Position numbers and translations under genes: made by a program. Source: Treponemataceae bacterium (lineage in GTDB: Bacteria; Spirochaetota; Spirochaetia; Treponematales; Rectinemataceae). From it: 64,000 nucleotides of DNA. Where the stretch lies: positions 448,001-512,000 of the forward strand of contig CAXXHO010000003.1 in NCBI GenBank assembly GCA_963667725.2, written 5' to 3'. A model generated the notes under the pieces. The model saw nothing but the letters and a program-made list of their open reading frames with translations. It ran no database searches and had not been told where the DNA came from. Below, piece by piece: positions 53,270 through 61,512 of the stretch. Position 1 is the stretch's first letter, and each line of letters opens with the position of its first letter.

Positions 53270-53575
53270 TTTTTTTCCTTATCTTTGCTGAACTCAAGGC
53301 TATCATGACATTTATATGCTGACAAGAATTTGTTGGTCTTGATAGTCTCATGAAAACCTTAGTCAAGTATGAAGCTTAATATTAGCATGCATCCTTCGCT
53401 CGCAACGGATGCCCCCCTTACCCCCTGAATCCGTAGTGTGGGAGTCAGCCGAAACGCTGCGGTTTACACTAAATAGCCATAGAGATTGCACCCCCCCCTC
53501 CCCATGGGTAAGAAGCTGCAGGAGGCGCCAGTCGACGCGAATGCATCGGCTTCAATCTGCTGTGGTCCGTGTCCT

Positions 53576-53758
53576 TCAGGTCGATATTGTTGGAGTATGC
53601 ACGACGATCCTGTCTTTCTTGGCCATAACGCGCTTCTTCACAGTGGTCACGGCGATCGAGATGAAGCTCCCATCATGAATCTGTATCTCCAGCTTGCCGA
53701 ATCCACGCTTTCGAGCGACTACTCTTAGTTCCTCGATACCCTCGTATTCCGGAGGGAT
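53576..53758 (-). pseudogene. Diverged copy of the 62-aa small ORF, start codon lost (ATC)
   Basis: Translates IPPEYEGIEELR...FGKLEIQIHDG...VTTVKK...KKDRIVVHTP, homologous to 57381-57569. Confidence 0.75.
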
Positions 53759-53770
53759 CGCTGTACCTCA

Positions 53771-53876
53771 ATCAATGTATGCGTAATAGTTCGCCGGCAG
53801 AGACAACCGCCTCATTATGCCCAGATTCTGCATGAAATTCAGAAATTTTCGAGCATTTCTGGCCTATTCGTCTTCA
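53771..53876 (-). pseudogene. Remnant of the rep gene 3' end
   Basis: EDE*ARNARKFLNFMQNLGIMRRLSLPAN matches the rep C-terminus EERVENARKLASFVQNLGKAKRVSLLAN. Confidence 0.75.
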
Positions 53877-53965
53877 GAAAGGTTTTGTTTTTTGAAGGGA
53901 ATTCCTGTTGGGTACTAAGCCAATGTCATGTTGACACTTCGCACCAAGAAAAGATTAATAGAATG

Positions 53966-54066
53966 TGGTGCAAAATCTGTGAAAATGGTACATAAATCGA
54001 TTACATGTACCAAAAATAAAAGATATGGTACAAATCCTTGACAAGTGTACCAAATAGATCAATACT
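53966..54066 (+). promoter_or_regulatory. Fic promoter with a 20-bp-periodic operator array
   Basis: TGGT(G/A)CA or TGTACCA at 53966, 53986, 54006, 54026, 54046; TTGACA at 54038. Confidence 0.7.
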
Positions 54067-54073
54067 GGGATAT

Positions 54074-55156
54074 ATGAAGTCCTTTGATCCCAGTAAACCG
54101 TATGATGCCCTTCCTCTTTTACCTCCCGATCGCTCTAGAGTTGAGACTATTGCAGTATTGCGCCAGGAAAATAAGGCTATAGCTGCATTAGCAGAATTAA
54201 AGGGCTTGGCTAATATTATACCTAATCAGTCGATACTGATAAATGCGATTGTGCTTCAAGAAGCTAAAGATAGTTCAGAAATAGAAAACATCATTACGAC
54301 AAAGGATGAATTGTATAAAGCTATTTCTTCAACTACAAAAAAATATGATCCAGCAACAAAAGAAGTAATGTTTTATAGGGAAGCATTATATGAAGGATTT
54401 AAGAAAATAAAAGAAAGAGATCTTTTATCCATGAATGATATTATTACTTTACAGCAAATATTGGTACAAAATAATGCTGGCATAAGGAAGTTACCTGGTA
54501 CTACATTAGCCAATGATAAGACAGGCGAGATTATCTATACGCCTCCTCAGAGTGAAGAAGCTATCAATTCGTTGACGGCCAACTTGGTTAAGTATCTTAA
54601 TGATGGTGAAGTAACCTTAATAAAGATGGCAATTTTGCATTACCAGTTTGAATCGATACATCCTTTTTATGATGGAAATGGAAGAACAGGACGGATAGTA
54701 AATATACTATATTTACTATTAAAGCAGTATTTAGATATACCAATACTTTACCTAAGTTCATATATAATAAAAAATAAGGAATTATATTACAAACTTTTGC
54801 TTGGTGTCACTAAAGATGAGAAATGGGAAGACTGGATTATTTACATATTAAAAGGAGTTGAAGAAACTTCCAGAGAGACTATTGTCAAAATAAAGCAAAT
54901 AAAGAATCTATTAGATAGAACGATAGAGAGAGTAAAAGAACAAGCTCCCAAAATATATTCTAAAGAGCTTGTTGAGACATTATTTGTAAATCCGTATTGT
55001 AAAGTCGAGTTTATAACCAGTTCGATTGGCGTAGAGCGAAAAGCAGCTTCAAGATACCTACATCAGTTAGTAGAAGTTGGAATACTCGAAGAATATAAGG
55101 TTGGAAAAGAAAATATTTTTATTAATAAGGATTTACTGGAAATCCTGAAAAAGTAA
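54074..55156 (+). CDS. Class II Fic-family protein (AMP transferase) with C-terminal HTH
   Basis: HPFYDGNGRTGR catalytic motif; N-terminal inhibitory SSEIEN. Confidence 0.93.
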   Translation: MKSFDPSKPYDALPLLPPDRSRVETIAVLRQENKAIAALAELKGLANIIPNQSILINAIVLQEAKDSSEIENIITTKDELYKAISSTTKKYDPATKEVMFYREALYEGFKKIKERDLLSMNDIITLQQILVQNNAGIRKLPGTTLANDKTGEIIYTPPQSEEAINSLTANLVKYLNDGEVTLIKMAILHYQFESIHPFYDGNGRTGRIVNILYLLLKQYLDIPILYLSSYIIKNKELYYKLLLGVTKDEKWEDWIIYILKGVEETSRETIVKIKQIKNLLDRTIERVKEQAPKIYSKELVETLFVNPYCKVEFITSSIGVERKAASRYLHQLVEVGILEEYKVGKENIFINKDLLEILKK

Positions 55157-55158
55157 AA

Positions 55159-55284
55159 AACATGACACACGCTTCAACCTTATAACGCTCTTTGTCACGC
55201 ATCTTGCGGGAAGAGTTCACAAGATGCGCGCCAATCCCTCGCTTCGCTCGGGAGCGAGTGGTTAAGGTTATGCCAACGATAGAC
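55159..55284 (+). repeat. attC-like integron cassette recombination site
   Basis: Starts 2 bp after the Fic stop; TTCAACCT...GCATCTTG/CAAGATGC...GCGCCAATCCCT...AGGTTATGCCAACGATAGAC imperfect palindrome of spirochaete attC style. Confidence 0.7.
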
Positions 55285-55478
55285 CGATAGCCGCCTTAAA
55301 AAACAGAAAGATTGAAATAACCTCTCCAATATTCAATCAAAATCGAGAAAGCACGATGTTTTTCATATAGCTGTCATTTTTTAAAATTATTTTAAAATAG
55401 GTCTTGTAAAGCATTTTTAATCAATATATCCCTTGTTTTAAGGATATCCCCTACATCTTAACAAAGGAAGTTGATTGT

Positions 55479-56456
55479 ATGAATCAGGAAAAAATCAAAG
55501 AGCTTGAAAAGACGATAAGCAGTGACTACAGCAATATTGCTGGCATTATTGTTCAAAAATGCGGCGTAAAATTATTTGAAAACTACTTTAATGGATATAC
55601 CGCCGATAAGGCCGTTCATATGTATTCGGTGACTAAAAGCGTTATTTCCGCGTTGATCGGTATCGCCATCGATAAAGGTTATATAAAAAGCGTAGACCAA
55701 AAGGTATTGGACTTTTTTCCCGATTACGTTGTCGTAACAGGTGAAAAAACAATACAGCACGTTACGGTCAAAAATCTTCTTACCATGACGGCCCCCTATA
55801 AATATAAGACGGAACCATACGTGGAGTTTTTCGCAAGCCAGAACCCGATTCTAGATGCACTCAATTTATTGGGCGGGGATGGAGTCATCGGGGAATTTAA
55901 TTATTCTGCCATCGGAGGAACCCATATTTTGTCAGGTATCCTTGTGAGGTCGACGGGACAGTCCATACTTGATTTCGCTATGAAAAACTTATTTTCTCCA
56001 CTGGGAATCAACGTTATGCACAATCTGGTGTTGCGTAGTAAAGAAGAACATTTCGCCGTTATGAATGATAAAAACACAAGTGGCTGGGTTGTTGACCCAC
56101 AAGGGATAAACACGGCTAGCTGGGGCCTTTTTTTAACGCCTGCGGATATGACAAAAATTGGTCAATTGTACTTAAATGATGGAACGTGGGGTGGTAACCA
56201 AATTATACCGACCGCGTGGATAAATGAGAGTACAAGAGAACATAGCCGATGCGTCCAATGGGGCAATCTAGCTTATGGCTATCTTTGGTGGATCATTGAC
56301 GGGGATAGCTATGCGGCTCTGGGCGATGGCGGCAATGTTATCTATGTCAATTCAAAGAAAGAAATTATTGTTTCCATCGCTTCGCTTTTCTTGCCAGAGG
56401 CCAAGGATAGAATAGAGTTTATTAAAAAATATATCGAACCAGTTTTTAAGGATTGA
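55479..56456 (+). CDS. Serine hydrolase, class C beta-lactamase-like (6-aminohexanoate-dimer hydrolase-like)
   Basis: SVTK (SxxK), LLTMT, FNYS, YGYLWW, ALGDGG. Confidence 0.88.
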   Translation: MNQEKIKELEKTISSDYSNIAGIIVQKCGVKLFENYFNGYTADKAVHMYSVTKSVISALIGIAIDKGYIKSVDQKVLDFFPDYVVVTGEKTIQHVTVKNLLTMTAPYKYKTEPYVEFFASQNPILDALNLLGGDGVIGEFNYSAIGGTHILSGILVRSTGQSILDFAMKNLFSPLGINVMHNLVLRSKEEHFAVMNDKNTSGWVVDPQGINTASWGLFLTPADMTKIGQLYLNDGTWGGNQIIPTAWINESTREHSRCVQWGNLAYGYLWWIIDGDSYAALGDGGNVIYVNSKKEIIVSIASLFLPEAKDRIEFIKKYIEPVFKD

Positions 56457-56563
56457 GAATAACGAATCCTTATTTACCGGGGAGATTGAAAGTATTATAC
56501 GAAGCAGGCGAGTTTAAATTTCATTATTGGTTTGTAGAAGTGTATTGATTTTCAGCGGGTAGA

Positions 56564-56650
56564 TTCAACCTGACTCGGCTATTGTCACAGTTTGTGCTTC
56601 TGGGTTATGCCCAGCACAAACTGTGACAATGTACGCCTCACAGGTTAGAT
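56564..56650 (+). repeat. Second, truncated attC-like site
   Basis: TTCAACCTG...CAGGTT outer stem; perfect 18-bp inverted repeat 56581-56598/56613-56630; ends GTTAGAT. Confidence 0.7.
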
Positions 56651-56746
56651 GATGGCTCCTTCATGAATCTGAACCTCCACCTTGTCGAATTCCACGTTTG
56701 CGAGCACCTTTCTCAGTTCCTCGATATCTTCGTATTCCAGGGTCAT
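56645..56746 (-). pseudogene. Truncated copy of the small ORF
   Basis: MTLEYEDIEELRKVLANVEFDKVEVQIHEGAII*, cut at the attC junction. Confidence 0.8.
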
Positions 56747-56948
56747 TGCTGCACCTCCCCGCAACTTGCCACGGGCTAGTTCGTTGGTGAAAAGGTAGGC
56801 GCGGCTGCCGTAAATTAAGGTACTGACATGGTTCGTTTCAATCAATCATCCCTTGTTTCCTCCAGAAAGTATACAAGATTGATACATACTGGAGGAGAAT
56901 GTGATTAAGTTGCATCTTGTGAATATGGAAGAACTCAAAGACTATTAC

Positions 56949-57058
56949 TCAATCAAGGTATGAGTAATAGTTCGCCGGCAGAGCCATCCGCTTCATTATG
57001 CCGAGATTCTGCCGAAATATAGTCAATTTCTTCAAGTTTTCGGTGCGTTTTTCCTCGA
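56949..57058 (-). pseudogene. Second remnant of the rep gene 3' end
   Basis: EEKRTENLKKLTIFRQNLGIMKRMALPANYYSYLD*. Confidence 0.75.
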
Positions 57059-57149
57059 TATTTTTCTACCATTGAAAAATGCTTCTGTACTCCAATGTTC
57101 CGAATACTCGGTACTTGAAAATATATACCTTGATAATGGAACATTCGGT

Positions 57150-57395
57150 ATGGCCAGCTCAAATTCCAAACTCATCGCGGCGTTCACCCAGTCCCCTGTT
57201 ATGCGTTCTCGGGATCTTGTGAAAGCCGGCATTCCTCGCATCGAGCTGTCGCGTGCCCTGGCCGCGGGACAGATTCGGAAGCTTGTTCGTGGGATCTATT
57301 GCCTGAAGGATTACCGACCAAGCGAGCATGGTGATCTCGCCCTCATCATAGGGAAGGCAATAGGTCATCTATGGACTGTACTAGCTTATCTTTGA
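57150..57395 (+). pseudogene. Truncated AbiEi-type (type IV TA) antitoxin N-terminal domain
   Basis: MRSRDLVKAGIPRIELSRALAAGQIRKLVRGIY wHTH signature; no C-terminal domain and no AbiEii toxin. Confidence 0.7.
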
Positions 57396-57569
57396 TGCCG
57401 CTGGAGTATGGACCACGATTCGATCTTTCTTCGGAACAGGCTTCTTCTTTACGGTTGTCACCGTCATCGAGATAATGGCTCCTTCATGAATCTGAACCTC
57501 TACCTTGCCGAATTCAACATTGGCGAGCGCCTTCCTCAGTTCTTCAATATCTTCGTATTCCAGGGTCAT
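57381..57569 (-). CDS. Small protein (YezD/DUF2292-like)
   Basis: FGKVEVQIHEG motif, GAGGAG RBS, three homologous copies in the window. Confidence 0.7.
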   Translation of the reverse strand: MTLEYEDIEELRKALANVEFGKVEVQIHEGAIISMTVTTVKKKPVPKKDRIVVHTPAASKIS

Positions 57570-57596
57570 CGATGCTCCTCACATGGTGTATATCTA

Positions 57597-59072
57597 TTAA
57601 TTTGCCAGCAACGAAACCCGCTTCGCTTTACCCAGATTCTGTACGAAACTCGCTAGTTTTCGCGCATTTTCTACCCGTTCTTCTTCGGGTATGTGCTCCT
57701 CATCGAAGGATATCCCCGTGCTCCAACGCTCAGGCGTGGTCCGTGGACTCGTTGATGTTGGAGAGGCTTGCATGAGCGAGAGGATCTCCTGGATGTTCTT
57801 CGTGAAGCTTATGAACGTGAAGGACCACTGTCGTTTCTCAAGAGGCGTCTCTTTCGGCATACGCTTCTGAGCGAACCAGAGTTCCCGCCAGTTCTCGAAG
57901 TAGTAATCCACCGCGCGCTGCGCGAGTGTGTTGTTCTTCCCTAAGGCTTCATAAAGCTCCTTTGCCGCGTGGTTTGCCCGTTCATCAGGAAGGAGCGTGA
58001 TCCCCGTCACTTGATTGTACTTTCTGAACCAATAGCCGGCGATCTTGAATTGGGGGAGTTCCGAAAAGATGATGGGCTCATTTGCCGACGCCCCGCGGGA
58101 TGAAGTCTCTTGGATTGGAGTCTGATCCTCACACGCGCGCGTCTTCTCTTCTTCTGCTTCTTTATATGAGTCTATATATGCAGGCGTGACATCGTGTGAC
58201 ATGTCACAAAACGGGAGGCGTGACGTCACGCGTGACATGTCCGTGACATCGACCGTGACATCGACCGTGACAGGGGGCGTGACATCAGCCGTGACATCGG
58301 GTGTGACATCAGCCGTGACATCGGGTGTGACATCGGATGTGACATTGGCTGTGACATTAGGCGTGACATTAGGCGTGACATTAGGCGTGACATCGGCGGT
58401 TCTTTCTCCCGATGCATCATGATCCTGAGGTTGCGTTCCTGCGAGCGCCTTCCTGCGTTCCCGCTCTCGCCGCTTGCGTTCGAGTGCGGAGGAATCACCA
58501 CCATCGGATGCAAATTGCCGCTTCTCCCATCCATGGATCCGGAACTCGTCCTGCTCGTCCGTCTCAAGCAGACCGGCGCCTTTCAACTGGGTGAGCGCTG
58601 TCTCGACCGCCCCGCCATCCATCCGCAGAAAAAAAGCAAGGTCTTCATTACCAGGCAGATAGCCTTCCCTGCCTTCTTCCTTCACGATGCACAGGAGGTT
58701 GATCCACGTCTTGAACAGGTCGCCGGGGAGCCGTTGTACCTTCGGATCGTTGTACAGCTCGACATACAGGCGAAGCCATCCGTAGGAAGCGCCATTCTGC
58801 CGCTCTTCCCAGTTGTGGATACACCAGGCACCTTCAGGATCGACATCAAGAAGCTTTGCCTCGTGAAGTCTTTCAAGGGCCAGCCTGGCTGCTTCTGGCT
58901 CCTTCCTGAGGTAGTACGCGATATCCTCGAGTGGCGGAAGCCGCCCGCTCGTGTCCTTGTTCTTCGCGATGCACAAGAGGTTTATCCATGTCTTGAACTG
59001 CTCTCCCGATACTCTCTGAACCTTTGGCTTGTTCGGAATATCCGTGTAGAGTCTGAACCATGGCTGTTGCAT
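57597..59072 (-). CDS. Phage-type replication initiator / replisome organiser with duplicated N-terminal domain
   Basis: Two tandem W(F/L)RLY...PKVQR...FKTWINLLC...IH(N/G)WE domains, ERKRRERERRK, internal xxVT repeat region. Confidence 0.78.
   Translation of the reverse strand: MQQPWFRLYTDIPNKPKVQRVSGEQFKTWINLLCIAKNKDTSGRLPPLEDIAYYLRKEPEAARLALERLHEAKLLDVDPEGAWCIHNWEERQNGASYGWLRLYVELYNDPKVQRLPGDLFKTWINLLCIVKEEGREGYLPGNEDLAFFLRMDGGAVETALTQLKGAGLLETDEQDEFRIHGWEKRQFASDGGDSSALERKRRERERRKALAGTQPQDHDASGERTADVTPNVTPNVTPNVTANVTSDVTPDVTADVTPDVTADVTPPVTVDVTVDVTDMSRVTSRLPFCDMSHDVTPAYIDSYKEAEEEKTRACEDQTPIQETSSRGASANEPIIFSELPQFKIAGYWFRKYNQVTGITLLPDERANHAAKELYEALGKNNTLAQRAVDYYFENWRELWFAQKRMPKETPLEKRQWSFTFISFTKNIQEILSLMQASPTSTSPRTTPERWSTGISFDEEHIPEEERVENARKLASFVQNLGKAKRVSLLAN
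58186..58392. repeat. Iteron-like tandem repeat inside rep (putative origin)
   Basis: GTGACA at an exact 12-bp period, 13 copies from 58243 to 58387, plus off-phase copies at 58186, 58196, 58232. Confidence 0.85.
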
Positions 59073-59775: not shown

Positions 59776-59787
59776 TCACTACTCCTT

Positions 59788-59921
59788 ACTGTGTTTCCAC
59801 AGTGCCGTCTGATGCCACCTTGCAGGGAGATCCCCTTCAAGGCCATTCTTTGCCGGGCATATGACACGCCCAACCGCGCCTCGCCATGACTAGCAAAACC
59901 TCGCCGGACCAAACCTTTACC
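59788..59921 (-). ncRNA. Candidate guide-like RNA: GGY-NN pentamer tract with 3' hairpin
   Basis: 11 in-phase pentamers at 59861-59915 (8 GGY, 3 one-mismatch variants); GAAA-tetraloop hairpin at 59788-59803. Confidence 0.65.
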
Positions 59922-59927
59922 TATCTG

Positions 59928-60548
59928 CTACTTTGAAGATTCTTCTGTTTTGTTGGCCGACTCGATGGCCACATGGAAACAGCCGAACTGACCATCGCAC
60001 TCCGGTCTCCATTCCCCCACACCGACACCGAATCCCGCCAGGTTGAACAGGTTTACGAGCTGTTCGAGGCTGATCTTGTCCGCGTTGAACCGTACCCGCA
60101 CTGACGTCGTCCATGTCCTGAACTCAGGTCGATAGCGTATGTCGGCGACGCCCATGCCGACGCGGACCGTGTCCTCCCTCATCGAAGGCTCGCCCTCGAT
60201 GGCGACGAGATCGCTTCCGTTCTCTCCATCGATGAAGAAGGATCCCCGGAGCTCCGTCATCTTCATGCCTTCGGCGAACCGTCCGCCGGCGGATACCGCG
60301 GCAGCCTTGAACCCGATAGCGGGGAAGCCATAACGCCCGTCCGGAAGACGGTAGAACGATGCCTGGTATTCCTCTTCCGGATCCTTGGCAACTCGTGCGT
60401 TTTTGGCTTTCTTCATCTGCTTGTCGAGCATGGCTTTCTTAACCTTCTCGCTCCATGCATGGACGATGAGGGGTGTATCCCCGATGATGCGGATCTCGGT
60501 GTATTTGACGTTGATCGGTTTGATTTCGATGACTTCAAGATTTGCCAT
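59928..60548 (-). CDS. Stand-alone Cas7/RAMP-like protein (VIPR-like)
   Basis: IIGDTPLIVH first strand, GFPAIGFKAAAVSAG, RYRPEF, C-terminal G-rich loop AGFGVGVGEWRP...GQFGCF. Confidence 0.7.
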   Translation of the reverse strand: MANLEVIEIKPINVKYTEIRIIGDTPLIVHAWSEKVKKAMLDKQMKKAKNARVAKDPEEEYQASFYRLPDGRYGFPAIGFKAAAVSAGGRFAEGMKMTELRGSFFIDGENGSDLVAIEGEPSMREDTVRVGMGVADIRYRPEFRTWTTSVRVRFNADKISLEQLVNLFNLAGFGVGVGEWRPECDGQFGCFHVAIESANKTEESSK

Positions 60549-60966
60549 GTACGTACTCCTTTGACTTTTCTGTCTTCTCTTTAATCCAGGAAACGGGGAT
60601 CGCCCCGCGGTATAGGTACCAATGGGAACCGTCGGAATGCCCCGCGAGATTGAACAGCATGAGATCCATGGGGCTCATGTGGAAGATCATGCGGGCAGCC
60701 GTATTCCATGGAACCACGCTTGAACCTTCTTGGATCTCGATCGTGAAGCGAACCTCCGTGCGGTCACCGCACTTTCCCGTCAGGTTCGTCGCCCAGTGTT
60801 GAGCGGTGAACCTGGGATCATCGGTGAGCCAGAGATAGCCGCGGAATACCCTGGATCCGTCTTTGTAGGGGAGGTACACGCCGCCCACGGCTATTCCTTC
60901 CCGTACTATCCCTTTTGCGCATTCGCGGTTCGTAAAATGGTACAGCTTCACTCTTTCTGCCTCCAT
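60535..60966 (-). CDS. Hypothetical protein, possible ADP-ribosyltransferase fold
   Basis: LYHFT...GIVREGI and YLWLTDDP resemble ART core strands. Confidence 0.5.
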   Translation of the reverse strand: MEAERVKLYHFTNRECAKGIVREGIAVGGVYLPYKDGSRVFRGYLWLTDDPRFTAQHWATNLTGKCGDRTEVRFTIEIQEGSSVVPWNTAARMIFHMSPMDLMLFNLAGHSDGSHWYLYRGAIPVSWIKEKTEKSKEYVHGKS

Positions 60967-61039: not shown

Positions 61040-61294
61040 TCAAAACGGGATATCATCATCGCCAGCTGCGTCAGGAGCTGTGGGTACGGAATTCTCACGA
61101 GGGAACCATGCTTCGATGAAATAGAGCGGGAATTTGCCGCCTTCGACATACTTTTCATTCTTCACGAGCCGGCAGAAAAGCTTCTCCCCTGCAGGCAGAT
61201 TGATACCGATATCGCTCTCGATTTCTCCGGAGACCGAAACGATCTTTACTCCATTCTCTTCTTTCACCTTCTTCCACAGCGATCCTATCCTCAC
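61040..61294 (-). CDS. Small putative ssDNA-binding protein (DUF736-like) with SSB-type tail
   Basis: IGSLWKK N-terminus; acidic DDDIPF C-terminus. Confidence 0.65.
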   Translation of the reverse strand: MRIGSLWKKVKEENGVKIVSVSGEIESDIGINLPAGEKLFCRLVKNEKYVEGGKFPLYFIEAWFPRENSVPTAPDAAGDDDIPF

Positions 61295-61512
61295 CTCAAA
61301 CCTCCTTTACTAACGTCAAAGATTGTAAAAACCCTCCCTAGGGCGTACTCTTGAAGTACGACCAACAATTTCTTCCCGAAGGAGGGACAAACGCGCACTT
61401 TTGGAATTGAAGAATGGGAAGTTTTTGCTGTTCTAAACTGCCCTATCTGCGGTGAACCAATCGGATTGAGTCGTGAACAAATCACGAGCATGCTTGAATC
61501 GAGGAAGTTCAC
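61291..61512 (-). CDS. Hypothetical protein
   Basis: ORF with start/stop overlaps to both neighbours. Confidence 0.35.
   Translation of the reverse strand: MNFLDSSMLVICSRLNPIGSPQIGQFRTAKTSHSSIPKVRVCPSFGKKLLVVLQEYALGRVFTIFDVSKGGLR

Follow-up and report, generated by a model that had tools for sequence, protein, structure and literature searches.

The window, by which the whole stretch of 64,000 nucleotides analysed here is meant, carries on its minus strand a VIPR system together with neighbouring early genes of a mobile element, here called element A (Table 1). The gene for the Vipr protein (vipr), a GGY/NN array, a predicted tail and a vap-like gene follow one another in this order, and vipr, array and vap-like gene are a VIPR system as defined in bioRxiv 10.64898/2026.04.26.720920. 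The hallmarks of such systems are a stand-alone RAMP protein with G-loop and thumb, 9-16 YNNGG repeats, a structured 3' tail and a vap gene (vap1-6). Element A has a Vipr match, an 11-unit tract, a vap-like gene, natural targets of at least 80% in frame and a self match below 80%.

Table 1. Features of the VIPR locus and its surroundings (positions in the window)
Feature	Position	Strand	Evidence and remarks
HNH gene remnant	53414..53491	-	tblastn 69% over 26 aa, E 1.8e-4; gene precedes terminase in intact relatives
Replication initiator / replisome organiser (rep)	57597..59072	-	PF09681 E 3.8e-8; phrog_3926 E 2e-26; final large gene in the early operon
vap-like accessory gene, 214 aa	59131..59775	-	phrog_15946 E 6e-9
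Predicted vrRNA 3' tail, including NN unit 12	59776..59865	-	hairpins; ends at the vap ribosome-binding region
vrRNA guide, 11 pentamer GGY/NN units	59866..59920	-	8 canonical GGY, 3 degenerate
vipr, 206-aa RAMP-like Vipr protein	59928..60548	-	phmmer vs PDB 36pp; phrog_4652
143-aa ORF directly upstream of vipr	60535..60966	-	76% to element B counterpart; common to elements A and B
Targeted 84-aa ORF, acidic DDDIPF tail	61040..61294	-	all-beta model, DUF736-like lead; two allele classes in family
Self near-match of guide	61103..61135	-	17/22 read bases; 13/18 over nine tail-proximal units; orthologous position of target
Conserved stem-loop of ~65 nt, then U tract, upstream of targeted gene	61321..61386	-	

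The VIPR cassette and its carrier element

The SUSP1 Vipr (PDB 36pp) is the sole PDB match of the 206-aa protein at E<=1 (phmmer, E 1.6e-7), aligned over residues 128-200. In the alignment the SUSP1 His, Arg and G-loop D-W-R positions are covered by the motifs IVHAW, IRYRP and VGEWRP, the Arg of IRYRP standing at the SUSP1 R and the G-loop E-W-R at D-W-R. The protein is matched by phrog_4652 (E 1.5e-38), and 1340 database proteins reach E<=1e-60; a search of 68 other genomes of the host family recovered no Vipr. A literature search gave no report on this locus or on VIPR in spirochaetes; data files and supplements of the preprints, which may list the clade or its targets, lay outside its scope.

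The array begins 8 nt past the vipr stop. The predicted vrRNA tail folds with z -2.09 (6 of 200 shuffles equally good) and does not align with the tail of the vrRNA of element B, a second element described below. None of 200 shuffles folds as well as the whole vrRNA (z -3.39), and pairing is predicted between the first part of the tail and the final units of the guide (59850-59880, minus strand), which may affect loading. Homologues of the vap-like gene come after the array in element B and in the intact phage L091 too, and the 143-aa ORF found no family in Pfam or PHROG searches. As the cassette lies within the repressor-controlled early operon and no sigma-70-like promoter was found on its strand, it may be silent in the lysogen.

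Element A extends from an integrase gene by tRNA-Glu (C3:532906-534087) over cargo and genes for a CI-like repressor, an excisionase, RusA-like and ParB-like proteins as far as vipr, vap and rep; the ORFs of vipr, vap, repressor, ParB-like protein, rep and integrase are all open. An att duplication was looked for in element A and not found. Element B, about 1.1 Mb away on the same chromosome (site at G000:C3:1631536), has an early region as in element A, its own vipr (88%), and 44-bp attL and attR copies at tRNA-Pro, 39.8 kb apart. Terminase, portal and capsid queries from L089, L091 and L095 found no match in the genome (97% complete, 6% contamination, with both elements on one contig), so both are head-less by these queries; judged by sequence, they fit a phage satellite and a decayed prophage alike. 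The HNH remnant is probably the end of the phage-derived part, and a remnant of identical kind is kept in element B. In place of virion genes both elements hold cassettes (53414-57600 of the window in A, G000:C3:1635164-1656110 in B), which are separated by attC-like repeats of ~130 bp with many copies on contig C5 and flanked by the HNH remnant and a duplicated 62-aa gene that comes after rep in intact relatives.

The rep gene contains a 12-bp tandem array (58231-58397, 14 copies) and a duplicated N-terminal domain (72-bp repeat at 58680/58962); the rep products of A, B and L089 have differing N-terminal domains and a common C-terminus. A tRNA-Ser and a second tRNA-like gene lie in the early region of element A (G000:C3:515931-516014, 516151-516223), and L089 has two at the same place. 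Among the related loci L085-L101, vipr is found in L091 only, and L086-L090 and L094-L096 span its expected place. After rep, L086, L089 and L095 carry terminase, portal and capsid genes, and L091 portal, protease and capsid genes. In L091 (5200-5560) a vipr (76%), several back-to-back vrRNAs and a vap gene occupy the same position after the target gene, which marks VIPR as a variable insert in this phage family.

Guide, targeted gene and matches in related elements

The 84-aa ORF is 52% identical to its orthologue in element B. As regards the OB-like fold, acidic tail and ssDNA binding of SSB or DUF736 proteins, its structure model is beta-only (pLDDT 76.5), and the acidic tail is invariant in the family alignment. 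A DUF736 label is attached to 23% of an Atlas cluster, and Pfam DUF736 was matched by 1 of 14 members (E 0.099); searches of Pfam, PHROGs, PDB-wide and viral folds gave nothing significant, and a GTDB scan a single match of 14 residues. One allele class, K-[YF]-P-D-F-Y-I-E-A-W-V, is carried by intact VIPR-less phages and by element B; element A carries KFPLYFIEAWF, which differs at three adjacent mid-guide units. The self-type allele is also present in VIPR-less phages (L086), which makes it a pre-existing allele and gives no support to an origin by escape.

The initial annotation had compared 12 dinucleotides, the NN positions of the 5-nt GGY/NN array at 59861-59920 (minus strand), with positions 61100-61135 of the minus strand (KFPLYFIEAWFP), which lie in frame in the 84-aa ORF. 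Rescoring reproduced its count of 7 of 12 NN units and 17 of 24 nucleotides in frame. Its caveat that the first unit, AA, is out of phase stands in part: such a reading exists, but the in-phase pentamer 59916-59920 also has AA at its NN position. Unit 12 is not followed by GG and is mismatched at all 19 loci scored, so it is probably tail, which leaves a guide of 11 units (22 read bases), although this unit was dropped post hoc with the targets already seen. The 11 NN units spell codon positions 1-2 of the K-[YF]-P-D-F-Y-I-E-A-W-V stretch.

The self match scores 17/22 (77%), narrowly below the 80% calling threshold of the VIPR papers. By itself it is as unremarkable as the initial annotation had estimated: 639 of 2000 order-shuffled 12-unit guides reach 17/24 in the window, and 29 genome sites have that score with 12 units; with 11 units, 74 of 2000 shuffles reach 17/22 in the window. 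It is a shadow of homology, since element A carries the other allele class of the targeted gene.

The proposal that the guide targets the homologous gene of a related element was supported by better matches in the orthologues of element B and of L089, an intact, VIPR-less phage. The top site in the 4.2 Mb genome (C3:1631536, units 1-11, skip 1) is unique at 19/22 and lies in element B, in frame, at the orthologous codons of the only other homologue of the 84-aa ORF in the genome. The next-best genome sites (units 1-11) score 17/22 (n=2, self among them), and the margin of the B site over self is two bases (8 vs 7 units). The pattern of units 3-11 (18 bases) has a single exact IMG/VR match, which falls on the orthologous codons of phage contig L085/L089 and extends to 21/22. 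Among 17 orthologous DNA sites, the better-matching homologues that had been suggested as a check number 16, the last site being equal to self (11 of 12 distinct sites score higher). Over the nine tail-proximal units the self-type sites score 13-14/18 and the other 14 sites 16-18/18. A clean split of the allele classes by guide score is contradicted by the self-type relatives L086 and L092, which reach 18/22 and so pass the 80% threshold of the papers, and by the proteins P0009 and P0011, which would score below self, at about 15/22 by hand from the protein alignment. By hand count, 14 of 22 read positions and 1 of 11 skipped positions are invariant among nine distinct sites of the other class. 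No exact IMG/VR match was found to the 10-unit pattern of the window, whose own guide is thus without a perfect target there, and readings of 10 guide units with skip 0 or skip 2 gave no matches of the L089 or B level. Guide-target match, register and allele discrimination are evident in these alignments.

A natural variant of the guide is present in run X5, from another study, whose contigs carry a close copy of element A. The X5 contig over vipr and array (one contig, depth 14; run X7 is gapped at that position, and run X8 yields short fragments) has 28 differences in total. Four of these fall within the guide, three at scaffold positions and one at a read position, where unit 2 takes a form that matches a Tyr codon. 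Scored by hand, the X5 guide matches L089 at 22/22, L087 at 21/22, element B at 20/22 and self at 16/22. The 10-unit pattern with the X5 unit 2 has three exact IMG/VR matches, all three in orthologues.

Shuffled guides, named by the initial annotation as the control that might do equally well in frame, did not. Codon-aligned windows were scored over nine gene pairs of A and B and four of A and L089; none of 20,000 shuffles reached 19/22 in the aligned genes of B, and none of 20,000 reached 21/22 in those of L089. The orthologue exceeded the best self window, chosen post hoc, by at least 2 (B) in 164 and by at least 4 (L089) in 11 of 20,000 shuffles. Genome-wide the outcome depends on the units chosen: the score of the B site was reached by 7 of 500 shuffles with units 1-11 and by 1 of 250 with units 2-11, and is unexceptional with units 2-12 (56 of 250 reach 18/22) and with all 12 units (65 of 250 reach 19/24). 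With two unit choices unexceptional, the B score by itself is not decisive; its location is. An accidental resemblance of the NN series to the gene family would accord with the chance-level self match and with the two weak choices, but the sole IMG/VR match in a predicted orthologue, the three of three variant matches likewise, and the shuffle and regression controls make it exceedingly improbable.

Related guides and published systems

A total of 280 guides was parsed from 80 IMG/VR vipr loci and three others. A cross-scan of 178 guides gave 12 matches of at least 85% at skip 1, guide A among them, vs 5 at skip 0 and 4 at skip 2; on this comparison of sequences the skip-1 rule holds for this Vipr clade. 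Three of the ten cross-scan matches inspected, besides guide A, lie in a relative's copy of a gene that the carrier also has: L058:9155 on L049:8852, a vap-like gene (18 vs self 15, of 20), L009:2478 on L005:2674 (16 vs self 13, of 18), and L018:2985 on L014:8357, antisense in vipr (16 vs self at most 11, of 18). The gene at L005:2674 is, by motif, presumably terminase-like. Targeting of kin orthologues therefore recurs in this clade. The guide at L043:9129 matches at 23/26 a non-coding stretch just past the VIPR array of another phage (L047:9365) and, with a lower score, a comparable place in its own locus.

Element B has its own vrRNA (G000:C3:1632965-1633020; L103:15966), and reciprocal targeting of A by B was rejected, as guide B found nothing above shuffle level in the genome or the related loci. 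Its 9-unit pattern has no IMG/VR match. The 8-unit pattern has 16; no long open frame covers any of these in either of the two codon-aligned readings, and for the ones compared with the family no homology was seen. Guides of L091, whose staggered array was parsed roughly, found no target in the related loci searched. The best sites of three other GGY-rich tracts of the genome, taken as 11-unit guides, score 18/22, the level of other skips and of shuffles.

The idea in the initial annotation of a wobble-skipping guide with an anti-kin role agrees with the published VIPR mechanism, so the mechanism as such is not new. A 1-nt skip, wobble alignment, the 80% calling threshold, competing-phage targets and the lack of self matches at threshold were described in bioRxiv 10.64898/2026.04.26.720920. 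In VIPRs studied elsewhere, Vipr subunits bind the GGY of each unit and offer its NN to double-stranded DNA, every third target base is skipped, and the bound filament blocks transcription. According to bioRxiv 10.64898/2026.04.26.720927, the filament grows from the 3' tail end, and in SUSP1 structures the units near the tail are the first to engage. An action against satellites, and self scores that are lower in the case of vrRNA-targeting guides, are reported in bioRxiv 10.64898/2026.10.15.759431; the available text of bioRxiv 10.64898/2026.10.21.760802 records the recovery of such arrays and nothing further.

With the type II VIPRs of SUSP1 and of a Pseudomonas fulva prophage the present system shares a RAMP-like Vipr, a GGY/NN array with tail, a vap gene, the 1-nt wobble skip, a competing related mobile element as target and a self score below 80%. 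It differs from them in that a single vrRNA instead of an array of them lies between vipr and vap, the Vipr is distantly related (E 1.6e-7 against SUSP1), the element itself carries an orthologue of the targeted gene, and carrier and one target are on the same chromosome. Codon-aligned targeting of a conserved gene, a self score below that of kin (there for vrRNA-targeting vrRNAs) and guides that would silence the VIPR of a rival are also found, as far as the available text of 10.64898/2026.10.15.759431 goes, between SUSP1 and F5 satellites with solo vrRNAs. There the intact phage has the full system and the satellite solo vrRNAs only, whereas here it is a head-less element that has the full system, and intact phages of its own family that lack VIPR are its best targets. 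Like element A, the P. fulva clade (10.64898/2026.04.26.720920) has prophage-borne guides against other resident prophages and VIPR systems, but these mostly match lysis-lysogeny regulators, whereas here a small early gene that precedes the replication initiator is the target.

Class 1 CRISPR systems have a Cas7 backbone, a RAMP filament on the guide RNA, and CRISPRi acts through silencing by the bound complex. The present system resembles them in both respects, yet here there is no CRISPR array or contiguous spacer, and two bases are read per five RNA bases.

Proposed action, alternative readings and a neighbouring stem-loop

From sequence comparison the guide of element A is probably aimed at the kin allele class of this early gene, so that element A would suppress the replication of kin, its own copy being bound weakly or not at all. 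Element A would be a head-less prophage-derived element whose early operon carries vipr, one vrRNA and the vap-like gene. By analogy with other VIPRs, the guide-loaded Vipr filament would bind the kin allele at codon positions 1-2 and block transcription. In intact relatives 375-444 bp separate the target site from rep, which lies downstream (406 bp in L089); in element B the distance is 805 bp to vipr and 2311 bp to rep, both downstream as well. Given this position, silencing would have a polar effect on replication and, in B, also on that element's VIPR. Two terminator-like pattern matches were found in B, inside vap and rep, and none between site and vipr, which is chance level. Superinfecting or co-induced kin would thus be suppressed in their replication, and we infer that self is spared.

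The guide could instead be directed at intact phages of the KYPDFYIEAWV type, element B having partly escaped or matching incidentally without being silenced in this cell. Element B has three mismatches vs one in L089, and it alone among the 17 orthologous DNA sites has Val for Ile at unit 7, a conservative substitution that affects a read base; it persists with intact attL and attR and open early genes. Against this stands its score of 86%, with 17/18 over the tail-proximal units, which is within the natural-target range of the papers, and a silenced integrated element would likewise persist; we regard this reading as credible, at somewhat less than even probability. It is decidedly unlikely that weak binding at the self site damps the element's own early operon by negative feedback, besides or instead of kin targeting. 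The self site lies in frame in the operon of vipr, 550 bp upstream of that gene, and four neighbouring units towards the tail are matched; unit 2 of the window's guide fits self and not the Tyr-type targets, and no mismatch-tolerance data for VIPR were found in the available part of bioRxiv 10.64898/2026.04.26.720927. However, self has five mismatches in the nine tail-proximal units, spread over three consecutive units, the X5 variant is further from self, the VIPR papers have no self matches of at least 80%, and matches of 251 related guides (74 of 83 loci) to their own loci are barely enriched (19 at p<0.05 vs 12 and 11 in controls).

Decay of element A, its guide being a relic of past conflicts without present effect, would be in keeping with the missing head genes and att duplication and with the three degenerate scaffold units of the guide, one of which is canonical in the X5 variant. 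The open reading frames of the element and the 97-98% identical copy with the same guide in another study (one read-position change, on X5) speak against such decay, which is held unlikely. Beyond the probable kin targeting by element A, a wider role is possible but on balance doubtful: A and B would be head-less elements that took integron-type cargo cassettes for virion genes and use a complete VIPR as an allele-specific weapon, or superinfection immunity, against intact phages of their own family, telling kin from self by a few codons of an exchangeable early gene and turning off the replication operon of the rival. If so, the published phage-vs-satellite direction would be reversed, the elements would represent a still-existing step by which VIPR passes from viruses into host defence, and the Ile-to-Val change unique to B would be an escape mutation observed within the very chromosome that carries the guide.

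VIPR was first described in 2026, and no measurements of the limits between self and non-self were found in the available parts of the VIPR preprints. The locus offers a testable natural guide-target pair with an unusually complete range of graded matches to a single guide: 17/22 for self, 18/22 for self-type kin, 19/22 for element B and 20-21/22 for intact phages, with 22/22 for the guide variant. With this series direct tests become possible of the mismatch threshold, of how much the tail-proximal units count, and of non-synonymous escape. A sub-threshold in-frame self match can, moreover, predict the target gene of a guide.

The stem-loop upstream of the targeted gene has 11 further copies in 9 of the 18 loci searched, and 4 of its 19 predicted pairs have a compensatory change; no Rfam family was matched at gathering score. 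Two copies are in element A and one in element B (coordinates besides the window copy: L102:11230-11297 and L103:14307-14370), and most intact relatives have it (L086-L089, L092, L094-L096), twice right before tRNA genes. It is possibly a terminator or antitermination element or a small RNA element of the phage family.
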